A stretch of DNA of 64,000 nt from assembly GCA_034521515.1 (NCBI GenBank), contig JAXHMH010000002.1:280379-344378 (forward strand), in the 5' to 3' direction. Positions 5,582 through 60,240 of this stretch are shown here, one piece after another; position 1 is the first letter of the stretch; the number at the start of each line of letters is the position of its first letter. Below the pieces are notes generated by a model, which had not been told where the DNA came from, did no database searches, and saw nothing but the letters and a program-made list of their open reading frames with translations. The DNA is from Candidatus Saccharimonadota bacterium (GTDB lineage Bacteria > Patescibacteriota > Saccharimonadia > Saccharimonadales > JAXHMH01). Position numbers and translations under genes: made by a program.

Positions 5582-6499
5582 TGTACTAACCTGTAGTAAG
5601 TAGTATTGAATCGCTTCATCAGCATCAATCGATGTTGACTTAAGCCGAATATCGAGTATGTGCAATTCGTGAACGAGTTGTTTTATCCGAGAAAACGGTA
5701 TTTTTTTTGCAATTGTAGTGGTTTTTTGTAGAACAAAAGGGCTGATTTTCGCCTCTTTAACAATTTCTGATTGAGACTTCTGACCAGCAGCCTTAATAAC
5801 CGACAAGACATGTAATTGCCAGGCAATCATCGGCACAATTGCCATCGGATCAACGCCTTGTGATCGTTGGTCTTCATACAGTTGCTGCACACGCTTTTTA
5901 TCGCCCGAGAATGCGGCGTCAAGTAATTGGAAAATAGTGCTTTGTGGCATCCTCTCACATAAAAGCTCAATTGACTGGCGAGTTACATTAGTATCATAAG
6001 TAATAAGCTTGCGTAGCTCAGCATCAAGAAGCTGCTGATTTGCACCAACGCGGTCAATTAAGTATCTAGCGTCTGAAGACTTAAGCGTAGCTTTACGTTC
6101 TTTAGCTGTTTTAACCAACCAGTCTGCAAGTTGGTAAGTGTCTAGTTCGTTATACTCCTGATAGCTCGTCAATTTCTTTAAGTTTTTAAAGTAGCTCGAT
6201 CGCTTATCAAGTTTAGGCTCAATAATAAGTACGTCGTTGCTGTCTGGAATAATATCTAGCAACTGCTCAAGTTTTTCGGTAAACTCTTTCTGAGCACTGG
6301 GCTTATGTAGCACAATCAGTCTCTTGTCGGCCAAAAAAGGCAGCGCTTGAACCGCTTCCACAATGCGCTGATAACTAGCCTCTTCTCCGTCAACTCGCTC
6401 CAAAGCAATGTCGCCATACTTAGCCAAAAAGGCGTCGGTTTGCCGGCTAAGCTCTTGCTGTAGCAAAAAAGTATTCGACCCAGTTAACGTAGTAATCAT
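5579..6499 (-). CDS. holA: DNA polymerase III subunit delta
   Basis: The protein is about 306 aa and starts MITTLTGSNTFLLQQELSR. Size and layout fit the delta subunit. The ORF extends to 6529, but the internal Met at 6499 is the likelier start. Confidence 0.75.
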   Translation of the reverse strand: MITTLTGSNTFLLQQELSRQTDAFLAKYGDIALERVDGEEASYQRIVEAVQALPFLADKRLIVLHKPSAQKEFTEKLEQLLDIIPDSNDVLIIEPKLDKRSSYFKNLKKLTSYQEYNELDTYQLADWLVKTAKERKATLKSSDARYLIDRVGANQQLLDAELRKLITYDTNVTRQSIELLCERMPQSTIFQLLDAAFSGDKKRVQQLYEDQRSQGVDPMAIVPMIAWQLHVLSVIKAAGQKSQSEIVKEAKISPFVLQKTTTIAKKIPFSRIKQLVHELHILDIRLKSTSIDADEAIQYYLLQVST

Positions 6500-6590
6500 G
6501 CAGCTAGCTCCTGTTGGCATTTTAGGCATACGTGGGTTCCACCCCAGTAGTAAACTCCTCCTGAGTTACTACGAGGCAAGCGCCCAGCAA

Positions 6591-7640
6591 CTACTCTTTT
6601 TGGCATTTTGTACATATGTGCGTTCCTCTTCCAGCAACTCTTATTTTCTGAATGAATATACCCGGATGACGTGGGCATTGTTGCCCTTCGCGCCTAAATA
6701 CTCGCGCAAAACTGAGATAACTACCGCGCTTTCCCTCGGCGCTGACATAATCTTTATCAGTGCTGCCGCCTTTTTCTATAGCCAGCTCCAGCACATAGCG
6801 CAGTTCTTGAAATAATGTGTTCAGCTTGGCTGCAGGCACATTCTTGACCAGCGTTTTTGGATTAATTTTTGCCCCCCAAAGCGACTCGTCGGCGTAAATA
6901 TTGCCTACTCCGGCAAGAACCGTCTGGTCTAATATTGCTGCTTTTATGTTGGTGTTCTTACGCCGCTGCAAACGTTCTATAAATTGATCGGCAGTAAAAC
7001 TAGTTTCTAGCGGTTCTGGCCCAACTTTTTTCATAAAATCAATGTTAGGAACTTCAATTGTTGGGATAAGTTTGACCCACCCAAACTTGCGTTGGTCATT
7101 AAAGAAAAGATGCGCACCACACTGCTGTGCTTTTTGGCCAAGCCAAAAATCTTGCCAGTGTTCTTGACCTACTGCGGTGTCAACTGCTCCAGTACTCAGG
7201 CGCCGTACGTCATGTACGACTTCTTCCGTGCTTCGCAGTTTCCTTACATTAGACTCAAGTGCATCATCTCTTCCTTGCAGACAGAGTATTACCCTTGTTG
7301 ATTTATCCGGCAGTCTATCAACTAAGCTACTGTTAGGGTGTCCGGCACCAAACCGTTCCTCTTGACGCTTGACGCTTGACGCTTGACGCTTGACGTACAC
7401 CATCTGGCCGGTCATTTTCAAGTGACATACTAGTGAATACTGGCTATCCAGCTCAATCAATAAGACCTTAGCCCGACGCTTCACAGCCGTCACGCAAGCG
7501 CCAATTAAAAACTGCTCAACATCTGACTCGGCGTTCGGAAACGACTTAGCCCAATCATGCCAAACCGCAGCCACTCGTTTTCCAACAATTAGCTCTGATA
7601 ACCCACGCCTGACGGTCTCAACTTCAGGCAACTCTGGCAT
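6591..7640 (-). CDS. mutM: formamidopyrimidine-DNA glycosylase (Fpg/MutM) with a large internal insertion
   Basis: MPELPEVETVRRGL is the catalytic N-terminus (Pro2, Glu3). A C-terminal zinc-finger-like CPRH...CTKC is present. At 349 aa it exceeds the usual ~270-280 aa. Confidence 0.85.
   Translation of the reverse strand: MPELPEVETVRRGLSELIVGKRVAAVWHDWAKSFPNAESDVEQFLIGACVTAVKRRAKVLLIELDSQYSLVCHLKMTGQMVYVKRQASSVKRQEERFGAGHPNSSLVDRLPDKSTRVILCLQGRDDALESNVRKLRSTEEVVHDVRRLSTGAVDTAVGQEHWQDFWLGQKAQQCGAHLFFNDQRKFGWVKLIPTIEVPNIDFMKKVGPEPLETSFTADQFIERLQRRKNTNIKAAILDQTVLAGVGNIYADESLWGAKINPKTLVKNVPAAKLNTLFQELRYVLELAIEKGGSTDKDYVSAEGKRGSYLSFARVFRREGQQCPRHPGIFIQKIRVAGRGTHICTKCQKE
7363..7397. repeat. heptanucleotide tandem repeat (TTGACGC x4 plus one imperfect copy) inside mutM
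   Basis: Read directly from the sequence: ttgacgc ttgacgc ttgacgc ttgacgc ttgacgt. It encodes YVKRQASSVKRQ on the minus strand. Confidence 0.95.
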
Positions 7641-7824
7641 ACTCGCCCCTCACACCACACCAGCATACAACCGAACCAGTAGCCTGTCCTGTTGGTGTTC
7701 TTGACACATTTTGCATCTTTTCTCTCCAGTACTCAGTCACGGTACCTATTGTACCGCTAATTGCGGTGCTTCAAGAATAAAATCCAAACTGTACACAAGT
7801 GTGAAATGCGAAAGACAATATATA

Positions 7825-8070
7825 ATGGTCAACATGTCCGATAATATTGGCGATTTACTAAAGCAACGTAATTACGACGAGCCGCCAGAAGTTACGGCAA
7901 TCAAAAAGTTCATGCACGAAAAGTTTAATGCCGCTGGCACAGTTTCTGTACGCGACTCCCAAATTATTATCGCAGTCCAGTCTGCAGCACTCGCTGGTAC
8001 ACTCCGTATGCATCAGCCAGAGCTGCAAAAATTAGCCGGTGACAAAAAGGTTATTCTGCGGATTGGATAG
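7825..8070 (+). CDS. DUF721/DciA-like small protein
   Basis: From the internal Met the protein reads MVNMSDNIGDLL...VSVRDSQIIIAVQSAALAGTLRMHQPELQKLAG..VILRIG. This resembles the DUF721 pattern, recalled from memory. Confidence 0.5.
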   Translation: MVNMSDNIGDLLKQRNYDEPPEVTAIKKFMHEKFNAAGTVSVRDSQIIIAVQSAALAGTLRMHQPELQKLAGDKKVILRIG

Positions 8071-8272
8071 AACGAACTTCTGTTGACGCATGAATTACTA
8101 GTGCGCCTGCACACCACTCACCCTCTGGAACTCTTGTAACTTCTTGCCCTCGACGAAGAGCGATGAGGGCAGCACTATCCCAAGGCAAACCAGAGAACTC
8201 TGCTGGAACGTCTTCTTCCTGCTCATAGCTAAAGCTATCGGCTCCTGAACCAGCTTTTTCTAACAGTGACAT
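8051..8272 (-). CDS. hypothetical small acidic protein
   Basis: 73-aa ORF with an AAGGAA-like ribosome-binding site upstream of the ATG. No recognisable family. Confidence 0.35.
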   Translation of the reverse strand: MSLLEKAGSGADSFSYEQEEDVPAEFSGLPWDSAALIALRRGQEVTRVPEGEWCAGALVIHASTEVRSIQSAE

Positions 8273-10049: not shown

Positions 10050-12712
10050 TTATAGTTCGCCCCAGTTTTTGCCGGTTACTACGTCTACATCTAGTTTTAC
10101 AGGTAAGGTGTGAATGCTTTCCATAGTGGTTTTTAGCATGTCGGCCATGCCTTCCGCCTCTGATTCCGGACATTCAATCAGGATACTGTCGTGGATTTGC
10201 AGCAGCTGCTTGCATGGCGTCCCTTCCAGCTTTTTCTGCACTTCTATCATGGCCATTTTCATCAAATCTGCCTCGGTACCTTGTATCGGCATATTAATGG
10301 CAGCGCGTTCAGCTGCTTGGCGCACCGCAAAATTACTAGAGTGAATATCCGGCATTGGGCGACGGCGACCAAACAGTGTCTCCACATAGCCGTCTTCACG
10401 AGCCTTTTCTTTAAGATGATTCATGTACTCCAAAAGTGGTTTGCGTAGCTCGAAATATTTTTCGATAAAGTGCTGGGCGGCATCGCGCGTCATACCCGTA
10501 GCAATACTTAACCCATGTGGGCTCATGCCATAAAGTACACCAAAATTAATCACTTTAGCGTCACGGCGCATGCTCTTGGTCACTTCATCCGGTTGACGAT
10601 TGTACACTTGGGCGGCGGTAGCGGTATGAATATCGGCACCACCATTAAACATCTCGATTAGCTCGGTGTCGTTTGCCAGATATGCTGCCAAGCGGAGTTC
10701 AAACTGCGAGTAGTCAGCACTGATAAGTACCTTGCCTTTGCCGGCCACAAAAGCAGTGCGAATTCTACGGCCGAGATCTGTGCGAGTTGGTATATTTTGT
10801 AAATTAGGGTCGGTGCTGGATAATCGGCCAGTCTGAGCAATTGTCAGGTTAAACGTGGTATGCAAACGCGAGTTCTCGTCAACCATTTCTGGCAAGGTAT
10901 CAACATATGTATTTTTAAGCTTGGTGACCTCACGATAGTGAGTAATTAAATCAATTATTTCATGCTGTCCACGTAGTTTATCTAACTCACTGGCAGCAGT
11001 TGAGTAACTGGTTTTTCCTTTTTTAATACCTTGAGTTGGCAACTTCAGTTTATTGAACAAAATTTCACTCAATTGTGCCGGGCTACCGATGTTAAACTCT
11101 TCGTCAGCATATCCATAAATCTGCTGCTGCAAATCGCTTATCATGTCATCCAGCTCGTCATTCATCTCTTTTAGGTATTTTGTATCTAGCTCAATACCCT
11201 CGTATTCCATGGCTGCAAGCACCGGAATTACTGGCCATTCTATATCGTGCGCAAGTTTTTTAACTTTTGGCAGACTTTCAAGATCTTTGGCTTGCTGTTT
11301 ATATAACTCATTTATAATCGACAGCACTTCACCGCTACGAGTCACCAAATCTTCGTTAGGCATCTCTTCTAGTGATGAGCCTTCGTAGCCCAGGTCAGCA
11401 CTGGCCAGTTCGGTAAGTGTTTGTTCTCTTCTTAAGCTATTAATCAAAAAGGCACCGACCAGTACATCATGGCCAACATTATGCAGTTGTACTCCAATCG
11501 AATAACAAGCCTTGATAAATGACTTAACATCATAGCCAACCAGCTTCATTGCCGGTAATAAAGCTGCCAAAACAGTCTTGAGCTTATCTGCCGACACCTT
11601 ATCTACGTCAATAACGTACACTGTCTTTCCATCAAAACTAAGTAGCAAGAATTTTGGGTCACGGCCGTGCTTACCAGCGCATCGAGCGTGCACCAGAACA
11701 CTTTCTGACTCAATCCCAGCTATTTTATCTAGAGCCTTGTCTGACTGAATCACAATATGTTTCAAGGGCTTGTTATTCGCATCAGACAAATCAACTTCAT
11801 GGTGTTCTAACACCTGCATAGCTTCAGGTAATTGCCTTACCAAAGTGCGAAACTCAAATTTTTGGAGTGATTCACGTATCTTGTGCGGATCGCAGTTTTT
11901 TACGTCTAAGTTCTTTAAATCAAGCTTGATAGGCGCATCCGTCCAGAGCGCTCCGATTTTTTTGCTCAAATATGCAAGATCTTTACCAGCTACTAATTTT
12001 TTGCGCACACTTTCTTTAATCAGGTCGATGTTTTCATAAACTCCGTCTAGAGTTTTATGATCCTGGAGCAAAGCAACGGCTGTTTTTTCACCAATTCCCG
12101 GAACACCTGGAATATTATCCGAACTATCGCCTTTGAGTGCTTTTAGATCCAAAAATTGTTCCGGCTCTAACCCATATTTCGCCGTGAAGCTTTTTGGACT
12201 GTATAGCTCAATGTTACTTAAGCCTTTTTTAAGCGCAAACACGTGCACGTGCGGATCGATTATTTGAAGCATATCCAGATCAGACGTTACCAACATTGTT
12301 TCGATGTCCTTTTGTTGTAGCTTGAACCGCTGAAGCTGCCCATAATATCGTCCGCCTCATAATCATCTAGCTCATATAGCGGCCAGCCAAAGGCCTGCAA
12401 TAACTCCTGTAATAATGGGATTTGTTCATAAAAATCTGGTGGTGGTGGTTTGCGGCCAGCTTTATATTCGGGGTATATCTCGACACGTTTACGTATATTA
12501 GTTTTGGGCTTATCCCACGCCACACAAACATAGTCTGGCTTAAGCCGCTTGATTACTTCTAGTGCCATAACCGCAAAACCAAAAACCCCGCCAGTTGGCG
12601 TACCATCTTTTGTGCTCAAATACGGCATCGCATAATAACCACGATAAAAAACACTCTTGCCATCTATAATGGCGAGTTTTTTCTTCCTAGTATTCACCGC
12701 CGACTCACTCAT
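10050..12712 (-). pseudogene. polA: DNA polymerase I, split into two ORFs by a frame break inside the 5'-nuclease domain
   Basis: ORF 12287-12712 carries the 5'-nuclease N-terminal half (ending EADDIMGS). ORF 10050-12296 continues with LVTSDLDMLQ, the H3TH motif GIGEKTA and polymerase motifs DYSQFELR and RRDAKVINFGVLYG. The frames join if one A is added to the AAAA run at 12310-12313. Confidence 0.7.
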
Positions 12713-30100: not shown

Positions 30101-30128
30101 AATGGCAAATGGCCAATGGCCAATGGCC
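30101..30128. repeat. heptanucleotide tandem repeat (AATGGCA, then AATGGCC x3) at the 5' end of the CarS-like gene
   Basis: Read directly from the sequence: aatggca aatggcc aatggcc aatggcc. Each unit contains an ATG. Confidence 0.9.
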
Positions 30129-30151
30129 AAATCTTACCTTGGAGGTGCAAG

Positions 30152-30676
30152 GTGAATGAATGGTGGGAAGCGTTTTGGTTCTTTTTACCAGCCGGCTTTG
30201 CTAATATGAGTCCGATTTTGGCCGCACGACTGCCTCTTTTAAGACACTGGGGCACACCGATTGACTTCGGTGTTAAGTACAAAGGCGAACGATTACTGGG
30301 TGCCAACAAAACCTGGCGTGGCTTATTGTTTGGCGTGCTGGTTGGAGTTTTAGTAGCACTATTTCAATATCGTTTCATTGCCAGCAGTGCAGAATCAGTC
30401 GGTTTTATTGTTTTAGTTGGGGCGGCGCTAGGCTTTGGCGCACTGGTTGGCGATGCGGTTGAAAGTTATTTTAAGCGTCGCAGCCAGGTACCGGCCGGTG
30501 AAAGCTGGTTTCCATTTGACCAAACCGACTATATCGTCGGTGGCGTATTATTCGCTAGCTTGTTTGTCTCACTTGGTCTAGCTGACATTCTCCGTATCAC
30601 ACTCATATATTTCGGACTGCACCTAATGATGAGTTATGTCGGCTACCTAACGGGAGTCAAAAAGCGCCCTATCTAG
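30152..30676 (+). CDS. CDP-archaeol synthase-like protein (CarS/DUF46 family)
   Basis: FLPAGFANMSP, GANKTWRG, GDAVESYFKRR and FDQTDY match the CarS pattern as I recall it. The GTG at 30152 follows GGAGG by 6 nt. The ORF itself opens at 30116, inside the heptamer repeat. Confidence 0.65.
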   Translation: MNEWWEAFWFFLPAGFANMSPILAARLPLLRHWGTPIDFGVKYKGERLLGANKTWRGLLFGVLVGVLVALFQYRFIASSAESVGFIVLVGAALGFGALVGDAVESYFKRRSQVPAGESWFPFDQTDYIVGGVLFASLFVSLGLADILRITLIYFGLHLMMSYVGYLTGVKKRPI

Positions 30677-47219: not shown

Positions 47220-47443
47220 CCACCGTTTCAACAGAAACAAAAAAACCCACCTGAACAGTGGGTTCTTTTCTTCCTGGCTTGTCACCCATCGATCTTGAGC
47301 CTCAGGGTCGAAAGATGAGCCTGTCGAATGGGCTTGCCGTGAGCCTGTCGAATGGACTTGCCATGAGCTTGTCGAATGGGCCTGCCGTGAGCCTGTCGAA
47401 TGGGCTTGCCATGAGCCTGTCGAATGGCGGAAGGAGAGGGATT
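47220..47443 (-). repeat. orphan tRNA-Ser trailer
   Basis: On the tRNA-sense (minus) strand the order is as follows. First ATCCCTCTCCTTCCGCCA-type 3' end (47425-47443). Then four TTCGACAGGCTCAYGGCARGYCCA units (47317-47424), then one long unit (47275-47316). Last comes a 58-bp block that also occurs at 47546-47603. Confidence 0.9.
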
Positions 47444-47600: not shown

Positions 47601-47691
47601 TGGCGGAAGGAGAGGGATTCGAACCCTCGGTGCCGTTGCCGGCACAACTGTTTTCGAGACAGTCCAGTTCGACCACTCCTGCACCCTTCCA
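47601..47691 (-). tRNA. tRNA-Ser (anticodon CGA), CCA encoded
   Basis: Hand fold: acceptor GGAAGGG/TCCTTCC, anticodon stem ACTGT/ACAGT, loop CTCGAAA, long variable arm, T-arm GAGGG TTCGAAT CCCTC. Confidence 0.9.
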
Positions 47692-59563: not shown

Positions 59564-59869
59564 GGAGAGGTACCCAAGTGGCTGCTGCGTGAAACGTGAA
59601 TTGTTCGACGGTTTGCGGCAAACCAGATAAGGTAACAGGTATACTGCACATTACAATTCAAATACGGATAAATACCCGAGTGGCTGCTGCGTGAAACGTG
59701 AATTGTTCGACGGTTTGCGGCAAACCAGATAAGGTAACAGGTATACTGCACATTACAATTCAAATACGGATAAATACCCGAGTGGCTGCTCAAGTGAAAC
59801 GTGAATTGTTCGACGGTTTGCAGCAAACCAGATAAGGTAACAAGTATAATGCACGTACAGCTAGAATAC
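59564..59869 (+). repeat. three tandem 102-bp units, each beginning with a tRNA-Ser 5' acceptor/D-arm-like sequence
   Basis: The units span 59564-59665, 59666-59767 and 59768-59869. Unit 1 starts ggagaggtacccaagtggctg, identical to the first 21 nt of the adjacent tRNA. Units 2 and 3 start ggataaatacccgagtggctg. All three contain gacggtttgc, which also occurs in the tRNA anticodon arm. Confidence 0.95.
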
Positions 59870-59962
59870 GGAGAGGTACCCAAGTGGCTGAAGGGGACGG
59901 TTTGCTAAATCGTTAGGGGGTGGAAACACCCCGCGAGGGTTCGAATCCCTCTCTCTCCGCCA
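59870..59962 (+). tRNA. tRNA-Ser (anticodon GCT), CCA encoded
   Basis: Acceptor GGAGAGG/TCTCTCC, anticodon stem ACGGT/ATCGT, loop TTGCTAA, long variable arm, T-arm GAGGG TTCGAAT CCCTC. Confidence 0.9.
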
Positions 59963-59993: not shown

Positions 59994-60083
59994 GGAAGGG
60001 TGACCGAGTGGTTGAAGGTACTTGTCTTGAAAACAAGCGTGCCGGCAACGGTACCGTGGGTTCGAATCCCACCCCTTCCGCCA
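59994..60083 (+). tRNA. tRNA-Ser (anticodon TGA), CCA encoded
   Basis: Acceptor GGAAGGG/CCCTTCC, anticodon stem CTTGT/ACAAG, loop CTTGAAA, long variable arm, T-arm GTGGG TTCGAAT CCCAC. Confidence 0.9.
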
Positions 60084-60240
60084 TTCGACAAGCTCATGAC
60101 AAGCCCATTCGACAGGCTCATGGCAAGTCCATTCGACAAGCTCATCTTTCGACCCTGAGGCTCAAGATCGATGGGTGACAAGCCCGTTCGACAGGCTCAT
60201 CTTTCGACCCTGAGGCTCAAGATCGATGGGTGACAGGCCA
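60084..60240 (+). repeat. tRNA-Ser trailer repeats: two 24-nt units and two ~54-nt units, three of the four ending in CCA
   Basis: TTCGACAAGCTCATGACAAGCCCA (60084-60107), TTCGACAGGCTCATGGCAAGTCCA (60108-60131), and long units at 60132-60185 and 60187-60240. Confidence 0.95.

Follow-up and report, generated by a model that had tools for sequence, protein, structure and literature searches.

A candidate phase-variable heptanucleotide array in a variable loop of the fpg (mutM) gene of a Candidatus Saccharibacteria genome

The gene and its heptanucleotide array

The window analyzed here is a 64-kb stretch (64,000 nucleotides, nt) of contig JAXHMH010000002.1 from the Candidatus Saccharimonadota genome GCA_034521515.1. 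It encodes fpg (mutM), the gene for the DNA-repair enzyme formamidopyrimidine-DNA glycosylase (Fpg), and within the coding sequence of this gene lies a perfect tandem array of the heptanucleotide CGTCAAG (Table 1). The array was reported by Tandem Repeats Finder (TRF) with period 7, 5.0 copies, 100% matches and a score of 70, and is the top-scoring short-period array of the window. The expected number of 28-base runs that match themselves at an offset of 7 is about 1e-12 in 64 kb, and the probability that the array arose by chance is negligible. A first-pass annotation of the sequence had described four copies of TTGACGC and one TTGACGT at 7363-7397. This is the same array read in a register shifted by two bases; in the CTTGACG register five of five units are perfect. 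The peptide that was reported for the minus strand is indeed encoded there, as V83-Q93 of the 349-amino acid (aa) open reading frame (ORF).

No further copy of the doubled unit (the 14-mer CGTCAAGCGTCAAG, allowing up to 2 mismatches) was identified within the window. Neither promoters nor terminators were predicted in a scan of 6400-8200, which gives no support to a reading of the TTGACG units as -35 boxes. Also without result was a search of 6400-7900 against Rfam, and the same search with the loci of seven relatives returned only a sub-threshold chance match to a plant miRNA family. The repeat-containing loop is not predicted to form a hairpin (minimum free energy (MFE) z of +0.6 relative to shuffled sequences).

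Table 1. Features of the fpg locus, with positions given in window coordinates
Feature	Position	Strand	Remarks
fpg/mutM ORF, 349 aa, formamidopyrimidine-DNA glycosylase	6591..7640	minus	Pfam and PDB matches
Catalytic Pro2-Glu3 codons	7632..7637	minus	Invariant in alignment
Perfect heptanucleotide array	7361..7395	minus	CGTCAAG x5 on coding strand, CTTGACG x5 on plus strand
Codons V83-Q93 (VKRQASSVKRQ), predicted repeat-encoded beta-hairpin tip, variable site 1	7362..7394	minus	AlphaFold model
TAA ending translation at 3, 6 or 9 copies	7333..7335	minus	Simulated alleles
TAG ending translation at 1, 4, 7 or 10 copies	7322..7324	minus	Simulated alleles
53-aa insertion G123-G175, variable site 2	7116..7274	minus	Alignment; distinct from repeat
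C-terminal zinc-finger region C322-C346	6603..6677	minus	First knuckle CPRHPG, not CPRCG

Judged by its matches, the ORF is a genuine Fpg/MutM. It matches Pfam models for the N-terminal domain (Fapy_DNA_glyco, 1.6e-25), H2TH (1.7e-25) and the zinc finger (zf-FPG_IleRS, 2.8e-5), the first two above the curated Pfam cut-off, and Fpg/MutM chains in PDB with E values down to 7e-46. The N-terminus reads MPELPEVE, and both Pro2 and Glu3 are invariant across 26 sequences (the window protein and 25 relatives). Also invariant in this alignment are the columns of Lys58, Met76, Arg184-Lys185-Phe186 and Arg338; we take Lys58, Met76, Arg184/Phe186 and Arg338 to be the counterparts of the DNA-contact residues of the E. 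coli enzyme. The zinc finger has the form C322-x2-H325...C343-x2-C346, with a Cys-to-His replacement and one extra residue, and the Pfam model aligns to residues 330-348 only. The CPRHPG knuckle is common to the relatives P0006, P0027, P0029, P0041 and P0103. Apart from this variant first knuckle, the gene agrees with the earlier description of Fpg as otherwise intact.

An identical protein, MDZ7744399.1, is listed for a Candidatus Saccharibacteria metagenome-assembled genome (MAG; 706-kb contig). The only other record is an 8.8-kb Logan contig of run SRR26473340, and the next relatives are only about 70% identical. Both the MAG contig and the Logan contig have five copies of the unit. They differ by one base in 7050 aligned, at window position 10476, which hints at some strain heterogeneity within the sample.

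Alleles with 0-10 units were rebuilt in silico and translated, and only those with 2, 5 or 8 copies are in frame and full-length. Alleles with 1, 3, 4, 6, 7, 9 or 10 copies are truncated, in agreement with the earlier argument that only changes of three units preserve the frame. Because the unit is 7 nt long, a change of one or two units is enough to truncate Fpg. In the out-of-frame alleles a stop is reached 9-13 codons past the array, and the products (96-117 aa) end short of the Arg-Phe loop, H2TH domain and zinc finger. The repeat itself contains no stop in any frame and reads cyclically as VKRQASS; therefore, the tract could lengthen indefinitely as (VKRQASS)n. The PhasomeIt cut-off for phase-variable simple sequence repeats (SSRs) is at least 3 copies for units of 6-9 nt (PMC5953494). 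With five perfect 7-nt copies the array passes this cut-off and is a candidate phase-variable SSR, with a unit that is not a multiple of 3 and a predicted loss of full-length product upon change by one unit.

Searches for alleles with other copy numbers returned only the five-copy form. An exact look-up of the predicted products of 1-10 copies in a collection of 15 billion proteins found this form alone, and a DNA pattern of the two flanks separated by a variable gap gave 0 matches in Joint Genome Institute (JGI) metagenomes. A search with the N-terminal 86 aa found no fragment above 78% identity. The matches listed in a scan of GTDB genomes were mostly distant Fpg, and neither the window species nor its 341-aa relatives were among them. 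Thus, the in-frame (ON) allele is the only one on record for the window species (two assemblies, one run).

The same loop in other Saccharibacteria

The alignment with 25 relatives reveals two distinct variable sites in the Fpg N-domain. Site 1 starts straight after HLKMTGQMVYV, and in the window protein the repeat is the insertion. The first-pass annotation had placed the repeat inside an insertion of about 70 aa, which is wrong: it had merged the two sites, and the 53-aa insertion is the separate site 2, which lies 29 codons downstream. In an AlphaFold model (mean predicted local distance difference test score (pLDDT) 78), residues 85-94 sit between strands 79-84 and 95-100, and the repeat-encoded residues are predicted to form the tip of a surface beta-hairpin. 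Site-2 residues 127-171 have pLDDT values below 50. The site-2 insertion, at a second N-domain hairpin, shows sequence conservation across a single clade of Saccharibacteria Fpg (ALExxARKxRS...STG..D.A.GQE.W.SFGL..KAGQ) and is homologous only to the same position in the fpg genes of relatives. We considered whether it could be a mobile or structured element and rejected the idea, as there is no extra copy in the window or fetched loci and its folding is not significant (z of -1.6).

Site 1 varies greatly in length. Measured from Gln79 to [FW]G[AG]GHP, the loop has 8-9 residues in most of 99 Saccharibacteria-type loci, and in about 20 of the 99 it has 15-68 residues of unrelated sequence. By this comparison, the loop is tolerant of insertions. 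The nearest relatives of the window gene (about 70% identity) have no insertion and no repeat DNA at site 1. Arrays with a 7-nt unit do recur at this loop in other Saccharibacteria.

This recurrence was observed in the DNA of 20 other long site-1 loops from other lineages. A significant 7-nt autocorrelation is present in 12 of these inserts (empirical p <= 0.01), and among periods 2-12, period 7 ranks first in 11 inserts (binomial p 2.7e-7). Period-7 or period-14 arrays were found by TRF in 11 loops, often two per loop, with units that vary by loop (GCAAAAA, AACAAGT, AGAGGGA/CATCTGC, GAGAATC/CAATTCC, CAGTCGC/CAGTCAA, AGTAGTC, AGCTAAC). Beyond the loop, 358 kb of the same loci are enriched for periods 9, 12 and 15, as is usual for coding DNA. 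Since the remainder of these loci favors triplet periods, the 7-nt periodicity is a property of the locus and not of the genomes. A genome-wide bias towards 7-nt repeats in Saccharibacteria was considered as an explanation and is not supported, because the period-7 count outside the loop (14 vs 5.7 expected) is similar to that in other phyla (22 vs 10.9 expected).

Two comparisons bear on how the arrays change with time. Loci L112 (796-825) and L151 (1641-1670) share an identical, perfect (GCAAAAA)x4.4 array of 30 nt at this loop, although identity is only 66% between their proteins and about 63% in the flanking DNA; judging from these sequences, convergence, long-term homogenization or transfer could be responsible. 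A search with the N-terminal part of L151 for variants of its array found no relative above 79% identity. In the sister lineages L138 and L153, with flanks that are 74-80% identical, the loops are both 117 nt long and share the same two-array architecture. Their units differ between the two and are homogeneous inside each array, which implies concerted evolution by continued slippage. Inserts built of 7-nt, often 14-nt, arrays occur in L082, L136, L138, L142, L144, L153, L162, L163, L165, L167 and L168, where frequently two mutually pairing arrays per loop are flanked by hairpins made of the inverted flanking codons. The long inserts are scattered among short-loop lineages in a rough neighbor-joining tree. 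Among degenerate loops there is no length variation within clusters of at least 90% identity, the loops being identical among members, which argues against ongoing instability.

Hairpins are a second feature of these inserts. For 11 of 19 long loops, predicted folding is much stronger than for shuffled sequences (MFE z of -3 to -6.2), and the two central arrays of such loops pair with each other. Typically, the LVFVG codons are followed directly by their reverse complement (e.g., GGTTTTTGTG-GGA-CACAAAAACC), and the ..E.RFG codons are preceded by their own reverse complement (e.g., GCGAAGC-GGA-GCTTCGC). Because the stems track each lineage's own flank, local template switching is suggested, and from their sequences the hairpin inserts look like products of inverted-duplication mutagenesis. 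One insert is shared: the same 87-nt, three-hairpin sequence is present in L094 (327-411) and L166 (576-660) at about 80% identity and in opposite orientations. Both genes translate it in frame, and around it their DNA matches at only 56-66%. Dispersed copies of the inserts of any relative were not found in about 830 kb of fetched DNA, and the core of the L094/L166 element is absent from viral contigs.

Also identified were clades in which fpg is broken. Eleven N-terminal Fpg fragments, the P0312 cluster, diverge exactly past LVFR. In L172, a 10-kb contig, a near-perfect hairpin insert of about 105 nt (1750-1854, z of -5.2) brings an in-frame TGA; fpg remains recognizable downstream in the same frame, and the other members of the cluster continue in other frames. 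A further cluster, with Candidatus Minimicrobia vallesae and a Nanosynbacter MAG, has only fpg fragments of 54-127 aa. The proteins behind these observations include P0312, P0314, P0383, P0388-P0390, P0367 and P0393. Gain or loss of repeat units does not by itself account for any of these lesions, and some of the truncated records may be sequencing errors. Because fpg is broken or fragmentary in these clades, its loss is survivable in the phylum.

Other repeats in the window and in viral contigs

The window has only one other SSR by the PhasomeIt cut-offs, a heptanucleotide repeat (AATGGCA/AATGGCC) at 30101-30132 with 4.4 copies, 3 of them perfect. Each unit contains an ATG, and the repeat overlaps the annotated start of a gene for a CarS-like protein of the CDP-archaeol synthase family (30116-30676). 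Eleven period-7 arrays were found by TRF in the whole window, compared with 1.4 in dinucleotide shuffles. Those outside fpg are imperfect, mostly AT-rich and mostly intergenic, and there is no such excess in other Saccharibacteria loci.

Longer repeats are associated with tRNA-Ser genes. A 102-nt tandem repeat (59571-59890, 3.1 copies, 92% match) has units whose first bases all copy the 5' part of tRNA-Ser (GGTACCCAAGTGGCTG). This array ends in tRNA-Ser(gct) (59870-59962), which is followed by tRNA-Ser(tga) (59994-60083). Also present is a 24-nt repeat (ATGAGCCTGTCGAATGGGCTTGCC) in 4.7 copies at 47315-47427, the reverse complement of which recurs 12.7 kb away, at 60081-60239, as 2.7 copies together with a 55-nt repeat. 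Both 24-nt arrays are situated shortly downstream of tRNA-Ser genes (47601-47690 on the minus strand and 59994-60083 on the plus strand). Genes between them include those for ComEC, NlpC/P60, a GmrSD-like nuclease and polyprenyl synthetase, among others; no integrase was identified among ten ORFs scanned.

CGTCAAG arrays of at least 4 copies were found in seven IMG/VR contigs (L173-L179), with 4 to at least 10 copies. Five of these seven arrays lie outside any long open frame. Three of the contigs are related and share upstream sequence, with 7, 7 and at least 10 copies. No link between the fpg array and phage is claimed, as three control heptamers whose base composition was similar or identical had 0, 3 and 2 matches.

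Origin of the array and its possible roles

The site-1 loops of the nearest relatives indicate what may have preceded the array. Their peptides are VYVSTQKRFG and VYVDDMKRFG, and their DNA reads GTC TAC GTG AGC ACT CAA AAA CGC TTT (VYVSTQKRF) and GTC TAC GTT GAT GAT ATG AAA CGC TTT. The reconstructed two-copy state of the window gene, TAC GTC AAG CGT CAA GAG GAA CGG TTT (YVKRQEERF; VYVKRQEERFG), is one codon longer. It is thus close to the relatives in length, and the first and last units merge with native flanking codons. In the explanation that we favor, a chance native seed with roughly two CGTCAAG units (TAC GTC AAG CGT CAA G), located at the insertion-tolerant hairpin tip, would have been expanded to five copies by slipped-strand mispairing. 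The present five-copy allele is in frame and has seven residues (ASSVKRQ) more than the two-copy state. Because a two-copy tract can gain no more than one unit per slip, simple slippage from two to five copies would have passed through at least one out-of-frame, Fpg-null intermediate (3 or 4 copies).

The same process may continue today. A slip by one or two units would truncate Fpg about ten codons on and abolish repair of 8-oxoguanine and formamidopyrimidine (Fapy) lesions, and a further slip may restore the frame, so that the frameshifts would be reversible. Given that there are only five copies, the rate of slippage is probably modest. The same loop in many Saccharibacteria fpg genes would be a hot spot at which 7-nt arrays and hairpin inserts arise, turn over and decay; the array would be the cleanest instance found of this lineage-wide process, and it is probably the simplest and youngest of the series of loop inserts. 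We conclude with moderate confidence that slippage produced the array recently, at a lineage-wide hot spot for insertions, and that it leaves fpg prone to reversible frameshifts; we judge it more likely a tolerated by-product of this hot spot than a dedicated, selected switch.

Several points weigh against this conclusion. No copy-number variants of the array were seen, and a single run is the only source of records for the species. Neutral slippage combined with purifying selection would not normally be expected to leave non-triplet arrays again and again in a coding loop, a pattern that favors a selected switch and keeps that explanation alive. The occurrence of period 7 in so many lineages is unexplained. 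If the arrays share ancestry, as weak similarities such as that of L153 and L163 might indicate, there were fewer than 12 independent events, and the scattering of the long inserts rests on a rough tree. The most economical idea, based on sequence comparison, may be that period 7 was inherited from an old array through concerted evolution; the weak array similarities among distant lineages (L153-L163, L144-L151 and L082-L138) fit this.

Repeats that switch genes in other bacteria provide a context for these predictions. The neuO gene of E. coli K1 (CUS-3 prophage) contains (AAGACTC)n, likewise an intragenic 7-nt unit that allows a full-length product only when the count fits the frame and that translates, as does the window array, as a 7-residue peptide repeat; neuO switches by strand slippage (PMC13001214). 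It is a phage-borne surface-modification gene with 3-53 copies at its 5' end and measured variation, 7% of cells being off the modal number (PMC13001214), whereas the window array, known from one sample, has 5 copies at codons 83-93 of 349, in the catalytic N-domain of a chromosomal repair gene. According to PMC8875331, citing Huang, Kang and Blaser (2006), mutY of H. pylori, which like fpg encodes a base-excision glycosylase of the 8-oxoguanine (GO) system, undergoes simple-repeat frameshifts that generate a mutator subpopulation. The mutY repeat described there is a mononucleotide tract in a pathogen with a measured mutator effect of about 26-fold; that of the window is a heptanucleotide in the fpg gene of an uncultured bacterium of the Candidate Phyla Radiation (CPR), for which the effect is predicted from DNA. 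In Salmonella mutL, also a DNA-repair gene with a short tandem repeat, slipped-strand mispairing interconverts functional and defective alleles (PMC2955026). Changes of its 6-bp unit stay in frame and act through the protein, in contrast to the window array, where changes shift the frame. Heptanucleotide SSRs are known from H. influenzae and Neisseria (AACAACC, TGAAAGA and CATTTCT), including AACAACC, which lies inside a TonB-dependent receptor gene and for which strains with frameshifted alleles are known, and TGAAAGA upstream of hmw1A/2A (PMC2651432; PMC5953494). Those loci have surface or uptake functions and copy numbers that vary among strains (1-13 and 3-26), unlike the repair gene of the window, which is seen in one sample. 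By analogy, the tract would work like that of neuO, with a predicted effect that resembles those of H. pylori mutY and Salmonella mutL.

An evolved contingency (mutator) locus is plausible from the sequence, but we consider it rather unlikely. The array would be kept because stochastic, reversible loss of Fpg produces a subpopulation in which G:C to T:A mutation is raised, and this may aid adaptation of an ultra-small episymbiont, and the decayed arrays of relatives would be switches locked ON. The array has the sequence characteristics of such a locus (at least 3 copies of a 6-9 nt unit, in an ORF, non-triplet; PMC5953494), and the mutY (PMC8875331) and mutL (PMC2955026) examples provide repeat-switched repair genes as precedents. 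Non-triplet arrays recur at one loop while the remaining genome favors triplets, the perfect (GCAAAAA)x4.4 array is identical in two genes that are 66% identical, and concerted evolution in sister lineages implies continued slippage. Loss of fpg is survivable, as shown by the P0312 cluster, L172 and the Nanosynbacter/Minimicrobia clade. On the other hand, ON/OFF polymorphism due to copy number was observed nowhere, and all of about 96 DNA-sampled Saccharibacteria-type loci have in-frame loops. Perfect arrays occur in only 3 of 21 long loops, with 4-5 copies each, whereas established contingency loci usually keep long perfect tracts (e.g., the 3-53 copies of neuO; PMC13001214). For a hypermutable tract, five copies are at the low end; degenerate loops do not differ within clusters of at least 90% identity, and the nearest relatives of the window gene lack any array. 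Because the 64-kb window holds only one other SSR by the same cut-offs, there is also no sign of a large set of phase-variable genes.

The array could instead be inert at the DNA level, a one-off duplication that added seven basic or polar residues, harmless or useful to the protein, in a tract too short to slip meaningfully. The periodicity of the DNA would then be only a historical trace. We regard this as unlikely. The loop does accept 0-60 extra residues of unrelated sequence, both assemblies have 5 copies only, and five copies are near the lower bound of variable heptanucleotide tracts, which range over (AACAACC)1-13 in H. influenzae (PMC2651432) and 3-26 copies of CATTTCT in Neisseria (PMC5953494). 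However, a substitution-free 35-nt tract points to one that is young and structurally prone to slippage, selection on the protein needs neither identity of the DNA nor a non-triplet unit, and the path from 2 to 5 copies would have taken at least two slippage events.

A broader idea, which we put forward only as doubtful, is that the loop after HLKMTGQxVxV is a long-lived, hypermutable cassette shared by the whole lineage, which acts as a reversible switch of 8-oxoguanine repair, with the window allele in a 'live' state. Homogenized heptanucleotide arrays, flank-derived inverted hairpins and inserts that are flipped or shared between distant lineages would be its traces. If true, this would mean reversible control of mutation rate in ultra-small episymbiotic bacteria.

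It is very improbable that the array is part of a small mobile or invertible structured insert that targets the loop, rather than a product of local slippage. Rickettsia palindromic elements, reportedly in-frame palindromic insertions in protein genes (Ogata et al. 2000), would be the model. The loop inserts of relatives resemble them in forming hairpins, as measured by the z values of 11 of 19 loops and of L172, and in being in frame in a surface loop, and the 87-nt insert of L094 and L166 is found in both orientations at higher identity than its flanks. They differ in that no dispersed copies were found in the fetched DNA and many stems are inverted copies of their own flanks. The window array itself is non-palindromic, has no second copy in the window, and has end units that merge with native flanking codons. 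An assembly or sequencing artefact is hardly credible: assemblers can collapse or expand tandem repeats, but different software produced the two assemblies and both have 5 copies, in unbranched contigs of 706 kb and 8.8 kb. The 35-nt tract is shorter than a read, and the ORF keeps its frame between homologous sequence to either side of the tract. At the k of 31 that Logan uses, no k-mer is repeated within a tract of 35 nt, and the Logan contig would have been broken by a longer one.

In summary, frameshifting repeats in coding regions are already known, and the setting of a lineage-wide hot spot is apparently undescribed. That one Fpg loop has repeatedly gained non-triplet 7-nt arrays and hairpins across the lineage, with triplet repeats favored elsewhere, is a robust pattern, as yet unexplained. 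Independent of any switching, it offers a natural system for the study of how slippage and template switching build protein insertions. If the tract slips, the CPR would have in fpg its first described candidate for a phase-variable gene, and likewise its first DNA-repair gene switched by a repeat. Local hypermutation would then be tied to the global mutation rate of organisms that have tiny genomes and depend on obligate partners.

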